Below are positions 19,527-61,890 of a stretch of 61,890 nucleotides of DNA, piece after piece. Numbering within the stretch: position 1 is the stretch's first letter; every line of letters starts with the position of its first letter. Position numbers and translations under genes: made by a program. The notes beneath the pieces were generated by a model. It did no database searches and was not told the origin of the DNA. It saw nothing but the letters and a program-made list of their open reading frames with translations. Source of the DNA: a bacterium (GTDB taxonomy: Bacteria > Patescibacteriota > Minisyncoccia > Phycocordibacterales > UBA2100); the NCBI GenBank assembly GCA_030648265.1, contig JAUSHX010000040.1, positions 1-61,890 on the forward strand, read 5' to 3'.

Positions 19527-19551
19527 ACCCTAGTGGCTAATCACTATCCCT

Positions 19552-20097
19552 ATGTCCAAACAAACACACGGTTCCGAGAGGCAGTGGTACGCAATCCACA
19601 CGTATTCCGGCTATGAGGACGCGGTGGCCCGCAATCTGAAACAGCGCATTGATTCGTTCGGGATGAAAGACAAGATTTTTGCGGTCGTCGTGCCCTCGGA
19701 AAAGAAAATCAAGATTAAAGGAGGGCGAAAGACGGAAGTGCGAGAGAAAGTTTTTCCCGGCTACGTGCTGGTGGAAATGATTGCAACCGACGATGCATGG
19801 AGCGTTGTCCGCAATACCCCGCAGGTTACCGGATTCGTCGGCACCGCAAACCAGGCCGTCCCTCTTTCACCGGAAGAGGTGGAGAAAATCCTCAAGCGCA
19901 CAGATAGCGACACGGTGCGGCACGCGATTGACCTTGCGCTTGACGACGCGGTCGTCATAATTGACGGACCTTTCAAAGATTTGGAAGGGAAGGTTGGGGA
20001 GATTGACGAAGAGCGTGGAAAGGTTAAGGTGCTAGTTCCGATGTTCGGCCGCGAGACTCCGGTTGAATTGGAAGCAGATCAGGTGCAAAGGGTTTAG
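19552..20097 (+). CDS. nusG: Transcription termination/antitermination factor NusG
   Basis: 181-aa ORF with WYAIHTYSGYE (NGN domain), FPGYVLVEM, and a KOW motif in the C-terminal region. Confidence 0.9.
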   Translation: MSKQTHGSERQWYAIHTYSGYEDAVARNLKQRIDSFGMKDKIFAVVVPSEKKIKIKGGRKTEVREKVFPGYVLVEMIATDDAWSVVRNTPQVTGFVGTANQAVPLSPEEVEKILKRTDSDTVRHAIDLALDDAVVIIDGPFKDLEGKVGEIDEERGKVKVLVPMFGRETPVELEADQVQRV

Positions 20098-20297
20098 TAA
20101 AATAAGGAGCAAAGCGACTATATTTTACTTAACCCTGTTAAATCCCGCCGTGGCGGGACGACTTGAAAAAAACGCAGAAATCTATATAGTGCCGTAACGA
20201 GTAACGAGCTGGCAAGTAAAAAACAAGTATATTTTTCAAGTCGTATTTAACAGGGTGTAAGAATCTCTAATTCGCTCCGCTCATAAGAGCTTCTAAC
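20098..20297 (+). repeat. Structured intergenic spacer, copy 1 of a 3-member family (nusG-rplK)
   Basis: It fills the whole stop-to-start gap. Conserved left end AAATAAGGAGCAAAGCGACTATATTTT and right end GGGTGTAAGAATCTCTAA..CGCT..TCTAAC-ATG. Stems pair 20128-20143 with 20245-20261 and 20158-20170 with 20232-20244, with a small hairpin at 20144-20157. Confidence 0.75.
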
Positions 20298-20720
20298 ATG
20301 GCCAAACAAGTAACAAAACTAATAAAGTTGCAGATTCCGGCGGGAGCCGCGACGCCTGCGCCGCCGGTTGGAACCGCACTCGGGCCTGCGGGGGTGAACA
20401 TTGGTGAATTCGTCAACCAATTCAACACCCGGACGAAGGCACAGGCAGGGAGCATCCTTCCCGTTTTAATGAAGGTCTACAGCGACCGCACGTTTGATTT
20501 CATCGTCAAGAAGCCGCCTGCATCCCGCTTGATTCTTAAGGCCGCCGGTCTTGAAAAGGGCTCCGACAAACCGCATTCCAACAAAGTGGGAAAGCTCACC
20601 AGTAAGCAAGTTGAAGACATCGCGAAAGAAAAAATGGAGGATTTGAATGCGAACGACATGACGCAAGCGAAAAAGATAATCGCCGGAACAGCCAGATCGA
20701 TGGGAATAACTACGGAGTAG
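20298..20720 (+). CDS. rplK: 50S ribosomal protein L11
   Basis: 140-aa ORF starting [43 protein letters not shown], the canonical uL11 N-terminus. Confidence 0.95.
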
Positions 20721-27359: not shown

Positions 27360-27488
27360 ACACTAAGTTTGCCGTAATTTTGCGCCGGAGTAATTTTAAC
27401 GCGGTTAAGCGTTTTTATGATTGTCGAGAAGTTATCGATAGTAATTTGTTCCATAAGAGGCGACGACAAACTTAGTGTCGGGGTCATA

Positions 27489-46411: not shown

Positions 46412-46458
46412 ATGAGCTATTGCCTGGTGCCTAGTGGCTGTGTTAGAGTGCCCGTTAC

Positions 46459-47046
46459 ATGACAACCGACGAAACAGCAATCTTAGACACGGAAGTGGCG
46501 GCCTTGCCCATTGATGATGGAGTAGCCGAGCCGCTTGAGGTGAGCGCAGTCGAACCTCGCATATACGAAATCGGCTATCATATTATCCCTACGGTAAAGG
46601 AAGATGATGTTGAAAAAACGGTTGGCGAAATTCGCAGTGCCATTGAATCCGCCGGAGGCGGACCCTCCTCCGGAGGAAAAGCAACATTTATTGCCGAAGG
46701 AGCGCCGTCGTTGATAAAACTTGCATATCCGATGTCGGTACGCGAAGGGGAGAAGTACACCGAGTATGACCGGGGTTATTTTGGATGGATAAAGTTTGAG
46801 GCACCTGCTTCCATGGTGGCTGTCTTGAATAACGCGCTCAAATCAAATCTCAGCGTCCTCCGTTTTGTCATCTGGAAGACTGTGCGCGAAGATACGCGTG
46901 CAAAGATAAAGCCGCCTACAATGCGCGAGGTGAAGCGCACAGACATCATTAAACCGGCGCCGCGCCGCGCCGTTGCGGAAGAAAGCGCCGCGCCTGTTTC
47001 CGAAGAAGACTTGGAGAAAGCTCTGCAGGACATAACTACAGAATAG
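46459..47046 (+). CDS. rpsF: 30S ribosomal protein S6 with N- and C-terminal extensions
   Basis: 195-aa ORF. The core IYEIGYHIIPTV...LAYPM...GYFGWIKFEAP...LRFVIWKT is bS6-like. The classical rpsF-ssb-rpsR order supports the call. Confidence 0.75.
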   Translation: MTTDETAILDTEVAALPIDDGVAEPLEVSAVEPRIYEIGYHIIPTVKEDDVEKTVGEIRSAIESAGGGPSSGGKATFIAEGAPSLIKLAYPMSVREGEKYTEYDRGYFGWIKFEAPASMVAVLNNALKSNLSVLRFVIWKTVREDTRAKIKPPTMREVKRTDIIKPAPRRAVAEESAAPVSEEDLEKALQDITTE

Positions 47047-47225
47047 GTTTAGAAAAATAAGAAGCAAAGCGACTATATTTTTCTTAACCCAGCACCTTTT
47101 CCCGCAACATGGCTTTACTTGCTCAAAACGTTATAGAAAGGTATTATTTTCTGGTCACACGGATGAACTTAAAAGGTGCTGGGTGTAAGATTTTCTAGCT
47201 CGCTTCGCTCACAACAAAATCTAAC
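47047..47225 (+). repeat. Structured intergenic spacer, copy 2 (rpsF-ssb)
   Basis: Same conserved ends as copy 1. The stem pairs 47083-47100 (CTTAACCCAGCACCTTTT) with 47171-47189 (AAAAGGTGCTGGGTGTAAG). It ends ...AATCTAAC-ATG. Confidence 0.75.
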
Positions 47226-47684
47226 ATGTACATAAACAAAGTCATTTTATTTGGAAATTTAACGCGCGACCCGGAGTTGAAAGCGCTTCCGTCCGGCACG
47301 AATGTCGTTAGCTTCGGGCTCGCCACGAATCGAGTTTTTCGCGACCGCGACGGCAAGAAGCAGGAACAAACCGACTTCCACAACATCGTAGTATTTGGCA
47401 AGCAGGCCGATGCAGTGTCCCAGTACCTGAAGAAGGGAAACTCTGCGTTTATAGAAGGGCGTATACAAATGCGCAGTTGGGACGACAAGACAAGCGGAGA
47501 GAAAAAGTACAAAACCGATATAATCGCGGAGCGCGTTCAATTCGGCCCGAAGGGAGGAGGCGGCGCGGGTTCAGGCGCGAGCTCTAGAGGTAAGGGCGAA
47601 GAGCCGGCGAGTGAGGCGCAGGCCGGAGGAAACGGCATTGAATATCCGAAGGATGATATTAATCCTGACGACATTCCATTTTAG
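47226..47684 (+). CDS. ssb: Single-stranded DNA-binding protein
   Basis: 152-aa ORF starting MYINKVILFGNLTRDPELKALPSG, with an OB fold, a Gly-rich linker and an acidic tail DDINPDDIPF. Confidence 0.9.
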   Translation: MYINKVILFGNLTRDPELKALPSGTNVVSFGLATNRVFRDRDGKKQEQTDFHNIVVFGKQADAVSQYLKKGNSAFIEGRIQMRSWDDKTSGEKKYKTDIIAERVQFGPKGGGGAGSGASSRGKGEEPASEAQAGGNGIEYPKDDINPDDIPF

Positions 47685-47863
47685 TAGAAAAATAATGAGC
47701 GGAGCGAATATATTTTTCACTACCCAGCACCTTTTCAAAACATTAATATTTCTTGCTTAATATACCATTAAACGTTATTATCTTCCGACTGACAGCACTC
47801 TTAGCGTGAAAGGTGCTGGGTGTAAGAGCTTCTAAGCTCGAATACTCGCTAAGAATCTCTAAC
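47685..47863 (+). repeat. Structured intergenic spacer, copy 3 (ssb-rpsR)
   Basis: Conserved ends AAAATAATGAGCGGAGCGAATATATTTTT and GGGTGTAAGAGCTTCTAA...AAGAATCTCTAAC-ATG. The stem pairs 47722-47735 with 47808-47821. Confidence 0.75.
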
Positions 47864-48064
47864 ATGTCAAACAACATTCTCACACAGAACGATATACAGT
47901 ACGTAGACTACAAAGACACGGAGTTGCTGAAGCAATTCGTGAGTCCGCACGGAGGTCTCGTAAGCCGGAAGCGTTTAGGGTTAACGGCAAAACAGCAGCG
48001 TTCAGTTGAGGCGGCGGTGAAAGTGGCGCGCTTCATGGGACTTCTTCCGTACGTGCAGAAATAG
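47864..48064 (+). CDS. rpsR: 30S ribosomal protein S18
   Basis: ORF 47813..48064 trimmed to the ATG at 47864 (MSNNILTQNDIQYVDYKDTELLKQFVSPHGGLVSRKRLGLTAKQQR), the canonical bS18 pattern. Confidence 0.9.
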   Translation: MSNNILTQNDIQYVDYKDTELLKQFVSPHGGLVSRKRLGLTAKQQRSVEAAVKVARFMGLLPYVQK

Positions 48065-48135
48065 CTACTAGCCACTAGGGTTTAGCCAATAGGAGAGTCC
48101 TAATTTGTGGATTTCTAGTCACTATTGGCTAGTGG

Positions 48136-48696
48136 CTAGACCCTTTCAACATACTCTCCATTCTCTGTATTGACTCGTATCGTGTCGCCTACCTCAATAA
48201 ACATTGGGACAGTGACCGTCGCTCCGGTTTCCAGGGTGACGACCTTGTTGCCTCCCTGGGCGGTGTTGCCGCGGGTGTTTGGCGGGGCATCAGTGACTTT
48301 CAGGTCCATTTTAATGGGCATGGTGATTTTGTAGGGCTTGTCGTCAAACAGGCGTACCTCAACTTCAGTGCCGATGGTGAGGAATTTTGCGGCATCCCCG
48401 ACCATGTCGCCAGTAAGAGAGAAGCGGTCTGAAGAATTATCAATATCGTGGAAAAACCATTCTCCTTTGCGATTGTAGATGAACTTCGCCTTTTTTGATT
48501 CAATTTCCGCTTCTTCAACTTTGTCTGAAACGTGGAACGTATACTCCGTGGTGGAGCCGGTCTTCAAATTCTTCAGTTTTGTCTGGTTCACCGGCTTTCT
48601 CTGCTGTTTGCGGAAAACCCATGCTGTAAGCACCTCGTACGGTTCACCGTCGAGAAGAATAAGCTTCTTTGGCAGAACTTCATTATATGACAACAT
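48136..48696 (-). CDS. efp: Elongation factor P
   Basis: ORF 48136..48732 with the start preferred at M13 (48696), giving a typical 186-aa length. Contains LILLDGEPYEVL and VKPVNQTKLKNLKTG. Confidence 0.85.
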   Translation of the reverse strand: MLSYNEVLPKKLILLDGEPYEVLTAWVFRKQQRKPVNQTKLKNLKTGSTTEYTFHVSDKVEEAEIESKKAKFIYNRKGEWFFHDIDNSSDRFSLTGDMVGDAAKFLTIGTEVEVRLFDDKPYKITMPIKMDLKVTDAPPNTRGNTAQGGNKVVTLETGATVTVPMFIEVGDTIRVNTENGEYVERV

Positions 48697-50740: not shown

Positions 50741-50874
50741 ACCCGCACACTAAGTGTGCCGTAGTTGTTGCCGTGGCAAATCCAGCGACCACTGGAGTTT
50801 TTTGATGGAAGGGAACACTCCTGCAATAAAATGATTTGTATTCATAGAGGCAACGGCATACTTAGTGTGCGGGC
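50741..50874 (-). repeat. Long spacer-filling hairpin between ftsK and the downstream gene
   Basis: Arm 50742-50762 (CCCGCACACTAAGTGTGCCGT) matches the reverse complement of 50853-50873 at 20 of 21 positions. The loop is about 90 nt. On the mRNA strand, the base of the stem ends 1 nt before the ATG at 50740. Confidence 0.7.
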
Positions 50875-50894
50875 ATAGGCCAGAAGTAAAGCAT

Positions 50895-61081: not shown

Positions 61082-61890
61082 TATACTTAGAGTTTGATCC
61101 TAGCTCAGGGTGAACGCTGGCGGCATGGATAAGGCATGCAAGTCACGGGGGCCGCAAGGCAACCGGCAGACGAGGTAGTAACACGTAGGAACGTACCCCA
61201 GAGTCTGGTATAGCTCGCCGAAAGGCGGGGTAATCCCAGATAGTCCCCTTACCACTTTTGCACTTCAGAAAAATAAAATGTACTCGTGTCATGCTCGCAT
61301 GGCATGGATATTGTTATAAAAATTGGAGATCAAAAGTGGTAAGGGGTAAAGGAGCAATTCGCTCCGGGAGCGGCCTGCGTTGTATCAGCTAGTTGGTAGG
61401 GTAATGGCCTACCAAGGCTATGACGCATAGGGGCGCTGAGAGGCGGACCCCCACCGATGGAATTGAGATACGGTCCATACTCCTACGGGAGGCTGCAGTC
61501 GAGAATCTTCGGCAATGGGCGAAAGCCTGACCGAGCGATGCCGCGTGGTGGATGAAGCGCTTCGGCGCGTAAACACCTTTTATGAGGGAGAAAGCTGTGC
61601 CTCACTATTGTTCGGCACCGCAGAACATCGCAGAACGAACGCAGAAGGTCGCAGAAGTAAATGCATCCCGCATTTTTTCTGCGTAATTCAGCGTCAAGTC
61701 TGCGTAAGTCTGCGCTGTGGCGAGTGATAGCGAGGCACAGATTGATGTTACCTCATGAATAAGGGGCTCCTAACTCTGTGCCAGCAGGAGCGGTAATACA
61801 GAGGCCCCAAGCGTTACCCGGAATTACTGGGCGTAAAGAGTGCGTAGGTGGTCGTGTTAGTCGTTTGTTAAATCTCCCGGCTCAACCGGG
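61082..61890 (+). rRNA. rrs: 16S ribosomal RNA, 5' portion (continues past the right edge), with two expansion segments
   Basis: AGAGTTTGATCCTAGCTCAG at 61089, ACTCCTACGGGAGGCTGCAG, GTGCCAGCAGGAGCGGTAATAC and ATTACTGGGCGTAAAG appear in the correct order. Extra helices lie at 61245-61346 and 61595-61740. Confidence 0.95.

Follow-up and report, generated by a model that had tools for sequence, protein, structure and literature searches.

The closest described relatives of the elements treated here are the free-standing homing endonuclease genes of the GIY-YIG type, such as the seg genes of phage T4 with their “intronless homing”, and the short repeats of bacterial chromosomes, which comprise miniature inverted-repeat transposable elements (MITEs) and mosaic repeats (the Correia elements of Neisseria, ERIC, the pneumococcal BOX, the Rickettsia RPE and REP/BIME). 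Genomes of Patescibacteria, or candidate phyla radiation (CPR), are small and thought to be repeat-poor. In one of these bacteria (GenBank assembly GCA_030648265.1, contig JAUSHX010000040.1) we have analyzed a stretch of 61,890 nucleotides, hereafter called the window, where three intergenic spacers next to nusG, rplK, rpsF, ssb and rpsR share the same hairpin ends. These spacers are probably copies, MITE-like and without an open reading frame (ORF), of a mobile GIY-YIG cassette of homing type that is common in Paceibacteria. The full cassette reads, from one gene to the next, as a stop codon, a left hairpin carrying a conserved motif (M), a central hairpin (H) that encloses a GIY-YIG gene for a protein of 84–91 amino acids, a right hairpin (M′) and the following ATG.

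Like free-standing homing genes, the cassette places a GIY-YIG gene between conserved genes and occurs sporadically at the same site in close relatives, where the spacer is exchanged as a whole, in keeping with repair via homologous flanks. Degenerate copies without the ORF are also found, as expected of the cycle of gain, decay and loss of homing endonuclease genes. However, the protein of the cassette is a catalytic domain alone, whereas the Seg proteins and I-TevI have DNA-binding domains. Moreover, a long stem surrounds the gene of the cassette, with a conserved hairpin on either side, one inverted relative to the other, and, unlike the homing genes of phages, the gene is hosted by bacterial chromosomes, at several unrelated sites within one genome.

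The resemblance to MITEs and mosaic repeats lies in a size of 100–200 nt, the non-coding nature, the intergenic position and the terminal inverted repeats, together with co-transcription with the neighbouring genes and an assembly from three modules (M, H and M′); as in Correia elements, some copies carry promoters. We know of no sequence similarity to Correia, ERIC, BOX, RPE or REP/BIME. In contrast to MITEs, the presumed autonomous relative encodes a GIY-YIG nuclease and neither a DDE nor an HUH transposase, a target-site duplication is not visible, the cassette fills the gap exactly from stop to start codon, and its orientation is nearly fixed.

A third relative has been reported from CPR bacteria, whose rRNA genes contain GIY-YIG insertions with the same protein family and the same style of stem as the cassette, but without M and M′ (PMC11270868). 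That study treats them solely as insertions in rRNA, to which homing does not apply in its view, and it describes neither an intergenic cassette nor the 28-nt motif M; it was the sole related item that we found in the literature on GIY-YIG genes in Patescibacteria, MITEs and CPR palindromic repeats, where we came across no account of the cassette. Integron attC sites and the ends of IS200/IS605 elements, at which folded single-stranded DNA recombines, are also comparable: they too are imperfect hairpins in which extrahelical bases are conserved and the stems keep their structure while their sequence varies. Here, however, neither an integrase nor a TnpA gene was seen in association, the two tips stand inverted on opposite strands and no cassette array is formed. 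A nuclease made of the catalytic domain only, paired inverted hairpins with GNA triloops and the replacement from stop to start codon set the cassette apart from homing genes, MITEs and the rRNA insertions of CPR bacteria.

Three Spacers with Common Ends

The elements of the window measure about 180–200 nt (179–200) and occupy positions 20098–20297, 47047–47225 and 47685–47863. Copy 1 runs from the nusG stop codon (20095–20097) to the rplK ATG (20298), copy 2 from the rpsF stop (47044–47046) to the ssb ATG (47226), and copy 3 from the ssb stop (47682–47684) to the rpsR ATG (47864). Both ends are common to all of them: the 19-mer AGCRRAGCGAMTATATTTT of the left end occurs three times against 0.07 expected, GGGTGTAAGA is identical in the three copies, and TCTAAC stands directly before each ATG. 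A first-pass annotation, made from the letters of the window alone, had described these common ends from stop to start codon and the conserved TCTAAC, and the coordinates and counts agree with it on both. Each element consists of three consecutive hairpins: a left one with M as its tip, the central H of variable sequence, and the right M′, which adjoins the ATG and has the M tip in reverse complement. Their parts are as follows.

20089–20136, plus strand: left hairpin of copy 1 (a-M-a′), with the 28-nt M core at 20099–20126 and the nusG stop TAG (20095–20097) inside the 5′ arm
20133–20255, plus strand: central hairpin H of copy 1, arms CCCTGTTAAAT (20133–20143) and ATTTAACAGGG (20245–20255), interior without ORF
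20256–20297, plus strand: right hairpin M′ of copy 1, arms AGAATCTCT and AGAGCTTCT, tip TTCGCTCCGCTC, followed by AAC and the rplK ATG at 20298
47047–47087, plus strand: left hairpin of copy 2, GTTTAGA, M core (47054–47081) and TCTTAA, directly 3′ of the rpsF stop
47088–47183, plus strand: central hairpin H of copy 2, arms CCCAGCACCTTTT (47088–47100) and AAAAGGTGCTGGG (47171–47183)
47119–47124 (−35, TTGCTC) and 47142–47147 (−10, TATTAT), toward ssb: predicted sigma-70-type promoter in H of copy 2
47184–47225, plus strand: right hairpin M′ of copy 2, TGTAAGA, TTTT, tip CTAGCTCGCTTCGCTCACAAC, AAAA and TCTAAC, followed by the ssb ATG at 47226
47682–47722, plus strand: left hairpin of copy 3, TAGTAGA, M core (47689–47716) and TCACTA, with the ssb stop TAG (47682–47684) inside the 5′ arm
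47723–47820, plus strand: central hairpin H of copy 3, arms CCCAGCACCTTT(T) (47723–47735) and AAAGGTGCTGGG (47809–47820)
47753–47758 (−35, TTGCTT) and 47776–47781 (−10, TATTAT), toward rpsR: predicted promoter in H of copy 3
47821–47863, plus strand: right hairpin M′ of copy 3, arms AGAGCTTCT and AGAATCTCT (swapped with respect to copy 1), degenerate tip AAGCTCGAATACTCGCTA, followed by AAC and the rpsR ATG at 47864

Folded as RNA, the three copies reach z scores of −5.6, −4.4 and −3.8 against shuffled sequences (copies 1, 2 and 3). A covariance model of the left hairpin (R1), run with filters off, matched exactly these three copies in the window, with 64.7 bits for copy 1 (E = 8e-11), 64.1 for copy 2 and 55.7 for copy 3. 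As DNA, the same hairpins fold with z = −4.9 (−10.7 kcal/mol), −4.8 and −3.1, respectively, and M′ of copy 3 reaches z = −5.1 on the minus strand. A comparison of the whole window with Rfam 15 at the gathering threshold returned only the SSU rRNA, and permissive scans of the three copies gave chance-level matches (E > 1), so that no Rfam family corresponds to the elements.

The stems kept by different sequences, CCCTGTTAAAT with ATTTAACAGGG in copy 1 and CCCAGCACCTTTT with AAAAGGTGCTGGG in copies 2 and 3, turned out to be real and to covary, as the annotation had held. The boxes whose order it saw exchanged between copies 1 and 3 are indeed swapped, and they are the two arms of the local hairpin of the right end. 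Its view of the interiors as unrelated does not wholly hold for copies 2 and 3, both of which contain TTGCT(C/T)-N17-TATTAT, as relatives do too. In fact, TTGC(T/C)(C/T)-N17-TAT(T/C)AT is conserved in six copies from different loci (copies 2 and 3 of the window, both copies of the contig L127, and L071 and L121), and the 17-nt stretches between the hexamers are unrelated in sequence. Hexamers conserved around a variable 17-nt spacer are the signature of a working sigma-70-type promoter, which is how we read these predicted sites. The H promoter of copies 2 and 3 resembles the native rpsF–ssb promoter that the element displaced, and the H interior of copy 1 holds a promoter-like TTGAAA-16-TATAGT (20163–20190). 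As for translation, no Shine-Dalgarno (SD) sequence precedes rplK, ssb or rpsR, in agreement with the annotation; this absence is uninformative because the window as a whole shows no SD, and an SD-less initiation platform is rejected as a special feature of the elements.

Hairpins Conserved in Shape

The motif M spans 28 nt, AAAATAA NN AGC NN AGCGA N TATATTTT, wherein A1–6 pair with T23–28 and N8 pairs with N20 (G-C in 57–58 copies, T-A in 18, A-T in 6 and C-G in 2). Inside this pair come positions able to form a tandem G·A motif and then a GC-GNA-GC mini-hairpin. The 5–7 nt that flank M on each side also pair, regardless of their sequence and with all four Watson-Crick pair types represented, and a mismatch or a bulged A recurs after the third flank pair. 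Over 115 distinct copies of M with its flanks, 85.7% of the cells are paired against 74.2% in shuffles, and the covariation score is 0.298 against 0.095, a value that none of 500 shuffles reaches and that slid registers do not approach (≤0.11). Diverged copies hold the fold through double changes, such as AAAATA/TATTTT to AAAATT/AATTTT (L022) or GC-GAA-GC to AT-GAA-AT (L048).

The arms of H vary between copies, with more than 10 arm types across the family among the matches listed, and their mismatches are G·T in 11 cases and A·C in 12, without any excess of G·T. The right hairpin was assessed by folds of single sequences and by counting the tip pairs, since RNAalifold gave no consensus structure on a MAFFT alignment, which is not structure-aware. 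The outer pair of the M′ tip is G-C in 22 copies, A-T in 11 and A·C in 2, the inner one C-G in 25, T-A in 8 and non-standard in 2, and the M′ stems keep their pairing with wholly different sequences. Each local hairpin is thus supported by covariation. As RNA, M′ folds weakly (0 to −11.5 kcal/mol, mean z −1.2); in DNA folds, the architecture of plus-strand M is repeated by M′ on the minus strand.

The first-pass annotation had proposed an outer helix between both ends of the element, with A-C mismatches that would become G-U pairs on an antisense strand. We reject such a long-range helix of M with M′: as judged by eye, no covariation links the variable positions of the two tips, and the double changes compensate within M′. 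AGCAAAGCGA and TCGCTCCGCT are thus complementary as inverted copies of a single tip motif, with the compensatory changes lying within each tip, and the antisense argument finds no support. One element (L141, 128–175) has its left tip flipped, that is, as the reverse complement of the M core, and is otherwise normal and upstream of a plus-strand gene.

A GIY-YIG Gene between the Same Ends

The nusG–rplK spacer of L035, whose NusG is 89% identical to that of the window, has the same ends as copy 1, and its H holds an ORF of 89 amino acids with a GIY-YIG domain (Pfam PF01541, E = 2.9e-15). The alignment of copy 1 with L035 shows homology at both ends only, and the idea that the interior of copy 1 is a decayed ORF is not borne out by it. 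Further GIY-YIG ORFs adjoin M in L074, L081, L111 and L112, as found by tblastn. Four additional ORF loci at three sites (pepM29|His_Phos, terminator|nusA and thyA|dcd) were chosen by their protein alone and not by M, and all four show the order M, CCCTGTTAAAT, ORF, ATTTAACAGGG, M′ and ATG. The nuclease gene is, in consequence, linked to M and M′.

The encoded family comprises 464 protein clusters of 84–91 amino acids, and all their named sources are Patescibacteria, Paceibacterota or unclassified bacterial metagenome-assembled genomes. The hallmark residues of GIY-YIG nucleases (Y4, Y6, Y17, G19, R27 and E63) are invariant, and so is the C-terminus NRLKSYLTG, whose codons (the YLTG end) form the 3′ arm of H in the copies with ORF. 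NCBIfam has no model for this ORF, and the PDB, compared by sequence, gave only a weak match with the UPF0213 protein BH0048 (E = 0.006).

The ORF also occurs without M or M′ within the arms CCCAGCAC...GTGCTGGG inside the 16S rRNA gene of L009, in line with the report that rRNA insertions of CPR bacteria other than introns can carry GIY-YIG ORFs (PMC11270868). The 16S rRNA gene of the window (61082–61890) has insertions of 81 nt and 138 nt, and the first of them (61245–61346) is an ORF-less, H-like stem, CCCCTTACCACTTTTG...CAAAAGTGGTAAGGGG, at the same 16S site as the ORF of L009. A nearly identical stem sequence is found as the H of the nusG–rplK element of L194.

Presence and Absence in Close Relatives

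Among 66 metagenome loci with both nusG and rplK, only 10 have the site filled (L137–L140, L142, L145, L194, L206, L207 and L215). The closest relatives of the window by their L11 protein, L136 (95%) and L141 (94%), have empty sites with AT-rich spacers of 39 and 24 nt, respectively, and a TAA stop; L143 and L144 are empty too. The contigs L136–L145 originate from groundwater. L137–L140, at 94% in L11, are filled and have a different H (CCCGCCCCAATTTTG). All filled sites show TAG and then (A/G)AAAATAAGG or a diverged form of it, and most empty sites end in TAA, indicating that the stop codon arrives with the element and that the whole native spacer is replaced. At the filled sites, the element hence replaces the entire native spacer, stop codon included. 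Repeated gain is required to produce this pattern, which is consistent with recombination via the conserved genes on both sides.

The second locus offers a similar picture. Relatives with 78–87% SSB identity keep the gene order rpsF-ssb-rpsR, and their rpsF–ssb spacer is native, with 64 nt and a TTGCTT-N17-TA(A/C)TAT promoter; their ssb–rpsR spacers range from 36 to about 150 nt, none with M. The closest relative at ssb, L127 (SSB 90%), has both ssb-flanking elements, and the next closest ones lack them. The comparison of orthologous spacers suggested by the first-pass annotation has therefore found the element absent in close relatives at both loci, where the spacers are short (17–64 nt, with some ssb–rpsR spacers up to about 150 nt). 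Elements are gained and lost among close relatives.

Several individual spacers deserve a separate mention. L127 (1–966) has the 3′ end of nusG joined directly to a copy-2-like element and ssb, either by rearrangement between copies or by chimeric assembly. The nusG–rplK element of L142 measures 258 nt, with about 75 nt extra nested within M′. The 17-nt spacer of L171 at the same site, TAG AAAAATAAAAACATGTC ATG, shares TAG and the first 8 nt with the filled sites and may be a deletion remnant. In L123–L126, the ssb–rpsR spacer contains from 2 to 8 GTCAAAT heptamers in otherwise identical contigs, together with a mini-hairpin CTAGC-GAA-GCTAG directly after the ssb stop, which has the GC-GAA-GC tip of M and nothing else of the motif.

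Distribution and Genomic Position

An exact scan for M in species-representative genomes recovered at least 117 stretches, and a covariance model likewise returned numerous members, so that the family has many members beyond the window. Among the matches listed, nearly all are from Paceibacteria, and the carriers include Kaiser-, Nomura-, Campbell-, Yonath-, Lloyd-, Taylor-, Kerfeld- and Gribaldobacteria and many Paceibacterota, together with a few sponge-associated Gammaproteobacteria. No viral contig matched the M pattern. Copies are sparse, with three in this window of 62 kb and mostly one per stretch of up to 8 kb.

The position of the elements is strongly tied to start codons, and they match no known insertion sequence or MITE. 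Among the matches listed, an ATG that opens an ORF lies 36–46 nt after H, that is, right after M′, in 34 of the 69 elements with M and H. Relative to stop codons, M starts at −7 to +15 nt in 41 cases on the same strand and in 3 on the opposite one, again among the matches listed; for some copies, the TAA of M serves as this stop codon. The genes preceded by family elements, read from their N-termini, are of housekeeping type: rplK, ssb, rpsR, nusA, rplC, rplJ and recA.

Other copies of M lie 0–1 nt after the 3′ ends of tRNA or tmRNA genes, and there the sequence that follows M is complementary to the 3′ strand of the tRNA. This was observed in L006, L010, L013, L016, L018, L029, L030, L084, L086, L096 and others, in the order M, complement of the acceptor 3′ strand, hairpin and repeated tRNA end. 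The repeat in L016 covers about 22 nt of the 3′ end of tRNA-Ser and lies about 200 nt further on. For the complementarity to the end of the preceding gene we have only ideas to offer, namely palindrome growth by template switching or a guide-like choice of target. In the sponge-associated Gammaproteobacteria (L007, L052, L080 (OZ243042), L021, L056 and L085), an identical 28-nt M sits in the loop of REP-like palindromes of the type ATTCCCGAACGAT...ATCGTATCGGGAAT, and no GIY-YIG ORF was found near these copies.

A Probable Mobile Cassette and Its Alternatives

MITEs are short, non-coding and multi-copy and have terminal inverted repeats, and the window offers all of this (3 copies of 179–200 nt). 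The relatives that bear the ORF share their ends with the window copies, and the enzyme they encode, a GIY-YIG nuclease, is a putative mobiliser. From the four roles considered by the first-pass annotation, that of MITE-like insertions targeted to highly expressed operons fits best, with the mechanism of mobility as its conjectural part. The linked GIY-YIG gene, the variable presence among close relatives and the promoters inside H were out of sight for that annotation. Several observations place the family at the level of DNA: the inverted tips, the equal numbers of G·T and A·C mismatches, the one flipped left tip, the weak RNA folds of M′ and the dispensability of the elements in close relatives.

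A mechanism may be sketched on this basis. The nuclease would cut alleles without the element, and repair would copy the element from the donor allele through the conserved flanking genes, while occasional illegitimate moves would bring it to new intergenic sites. Recognition of the inverted hairpin tips would take place on DNA, in extruded or single-stranded form. The copies of the window would have lost the nuclease gene, and the promoter kept in H of copies 2 and 3 would now serve ssb and rpsR, so that the elements would act as working intergenic regions of these operons; the hairpins probably also end or stabilise the flanking transcripts. We conclude that these are probably mobile DNA elements; the copies that survive would be those compatible with the expression of the operons and would in part have been co-opted for it.

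A number of points weigh against a mobile cassette. The near-fixed orientation and the exact abutment on stop and start codons would not be explained by symmetric selfish DNA alone, and point to selection on expression or to a role at the RNA level. The protein is a single GIY-YIG domain (residues 3–72) with no separate DNA-binding domain, which bears on how it would find its target. No autonomous copy is at hand here, as tblastn found no GIY-YIG gene in the 62-kb window. No direct repeat that would qualify as a target-site duplication occurs at the borders, where the native spacer is gone and the insertion point unreadable. Many M hairpins without M′ or ORF follow tRNA and tmRNA 3′ ends, of which the model gives no account, and M occurs without the ORF in a few Gammaproteobacteria.

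The alternative that survives best, although we consider it unlikely, is a cis-regulatory RNA of the host, wherein the elements would be RNase III sites, a protective 3′ hairpin plus a 5′ hairpin, or an SD-independent platform, and the nuclease would be an occasional passenger. It would account for the strong co-directionality with the flanking genes and the exact abutment on stop and start codons, and it is compatible with the covariation of the hairpins and with their place before housekeeping genes; moreover, the H-type stems of rRNA resemble intervening sequences, which are known targets of RNase III excision (PMC11270868). A host regulatory RNA, however, should not be missing from the closest relatives, whose spacers at the same sites have only 17–64 nt, nor be present in just 10 of 66 nusG–rplK loci. 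Tips that are reverse complements of each other are what DNA inverted repeats would show, and not what is expected of two RNA signals on one transcript, and neither the H stems (no bias of G·U over A·C) nor the feeble M′ folds nor the comparison with Rfam speaks for an RNA.

Quite improbable, in our view, is a transposition of single-stranded DNA of the IS200/IS605 or REP/RAYT type, in which an HUH tyrosine transposase encoded elsewhere would recognise M and the GIY-YIG gene would be cargo. The tips are inverted here, unlike in IS200/IS605 elements, which have both end hairpins on the same strand; the GIY-YIG gene is the only one recurrently enclosed; and copy number is low, at three per 62 kb. 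No HUH or TnpA gene was noticed beside the elements, within pieces of up to 8 kb and with no systematic whole-genome search. These features outweigh for us the hairpin ends with conserved asymmetric tips and bulged bases, the solo hairpins scattered in a REP-like manner, including those of Gammaproteobacteria with M within REP-like palindromes, and the complementarity of the sequence beside M to the flanking target, which is reminiscent of the pairing between guide and target. Least credible of all is that the spacers are plain promoters and terminators spread between operons by gene conversion, with M as a sigma-70 promoter (TAGAAA-18-TATATT, called by a scan at the left end of copies 2 and 3) and conserved hexamers in H, since in many copies the −35 box would fall in the variable flank (e.g., a tRNA 3′ end), the flanks covary as a stem, the same motif stands inverted at the right end, and the nuclease gene and the pattern of presence and absence would be left unexplained.

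Returning to the mobile cassette, a more specific form of it can be put forward tentatively. A minimal GIY-YIG nuclease of the catalytic domain would be mobilised via two inverted 28-nt hairpins with GNA triloops that are read by their shape, would replace spacers exactly from stop to start codon, and would remain harmless through its own promoter and the hairpins at transcript ends. Solo hairpins at the 3′ ends of tRNA and tmRNA genes would arise from it as well, with flanks made complementary to the gene end, for example, by template-switch growth. It is possible, if doubtful, that such a system constitutes an undescribed class of mobile elements.

Other Motifs of the Intergenic Regions

The window contains a second family of structured spacers, with two copies on the minus strand (50741–50894 and 27360–27488). 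Their arms, CCC(G/C)(C/G)ACACTAAGT.TG.CGT and ACGGCA.ACTTAGTGT..GGGT, are separated by about 90 nt, and the spacer fills the gap between two minus-strand genes and ends as GGGT-ATG at the downstream start, without M or M′. In addition, the motif CCTAGTGGCTA occurs five times against 0.27 expected in the window (19529–19539, 46430–46440 and 48069–48138), at sites in the short nusG and rpsF leaders and between rpsR and efp. A similar CCTAGTGCCTAAAACCTAA appears in the native rpsF–ssb spacers of relatives, and CCTAGTGGCTA may be a lineage-specific leader element.

Implications

A widespread cassette that rewrites the spacers of core operons changes the reading of intergenic regions, promoters and operon boundaries in CPR bacteria. 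Its repeats can also cause chimeric joins in metagenome assemblies, of which L127 may be an example. The presence or absence of the element between nusG and rplK provides a marker for tracking recombination among uncultured lineages, and the encoded protein is a candidate for structure-specific recognition of DNA by a nuclease of less than 100 amino acids. Finally, the cassette ties the unexplained GIY-YIG insertions in the rRNA genes of CPR bacteria to a broader mobile family.

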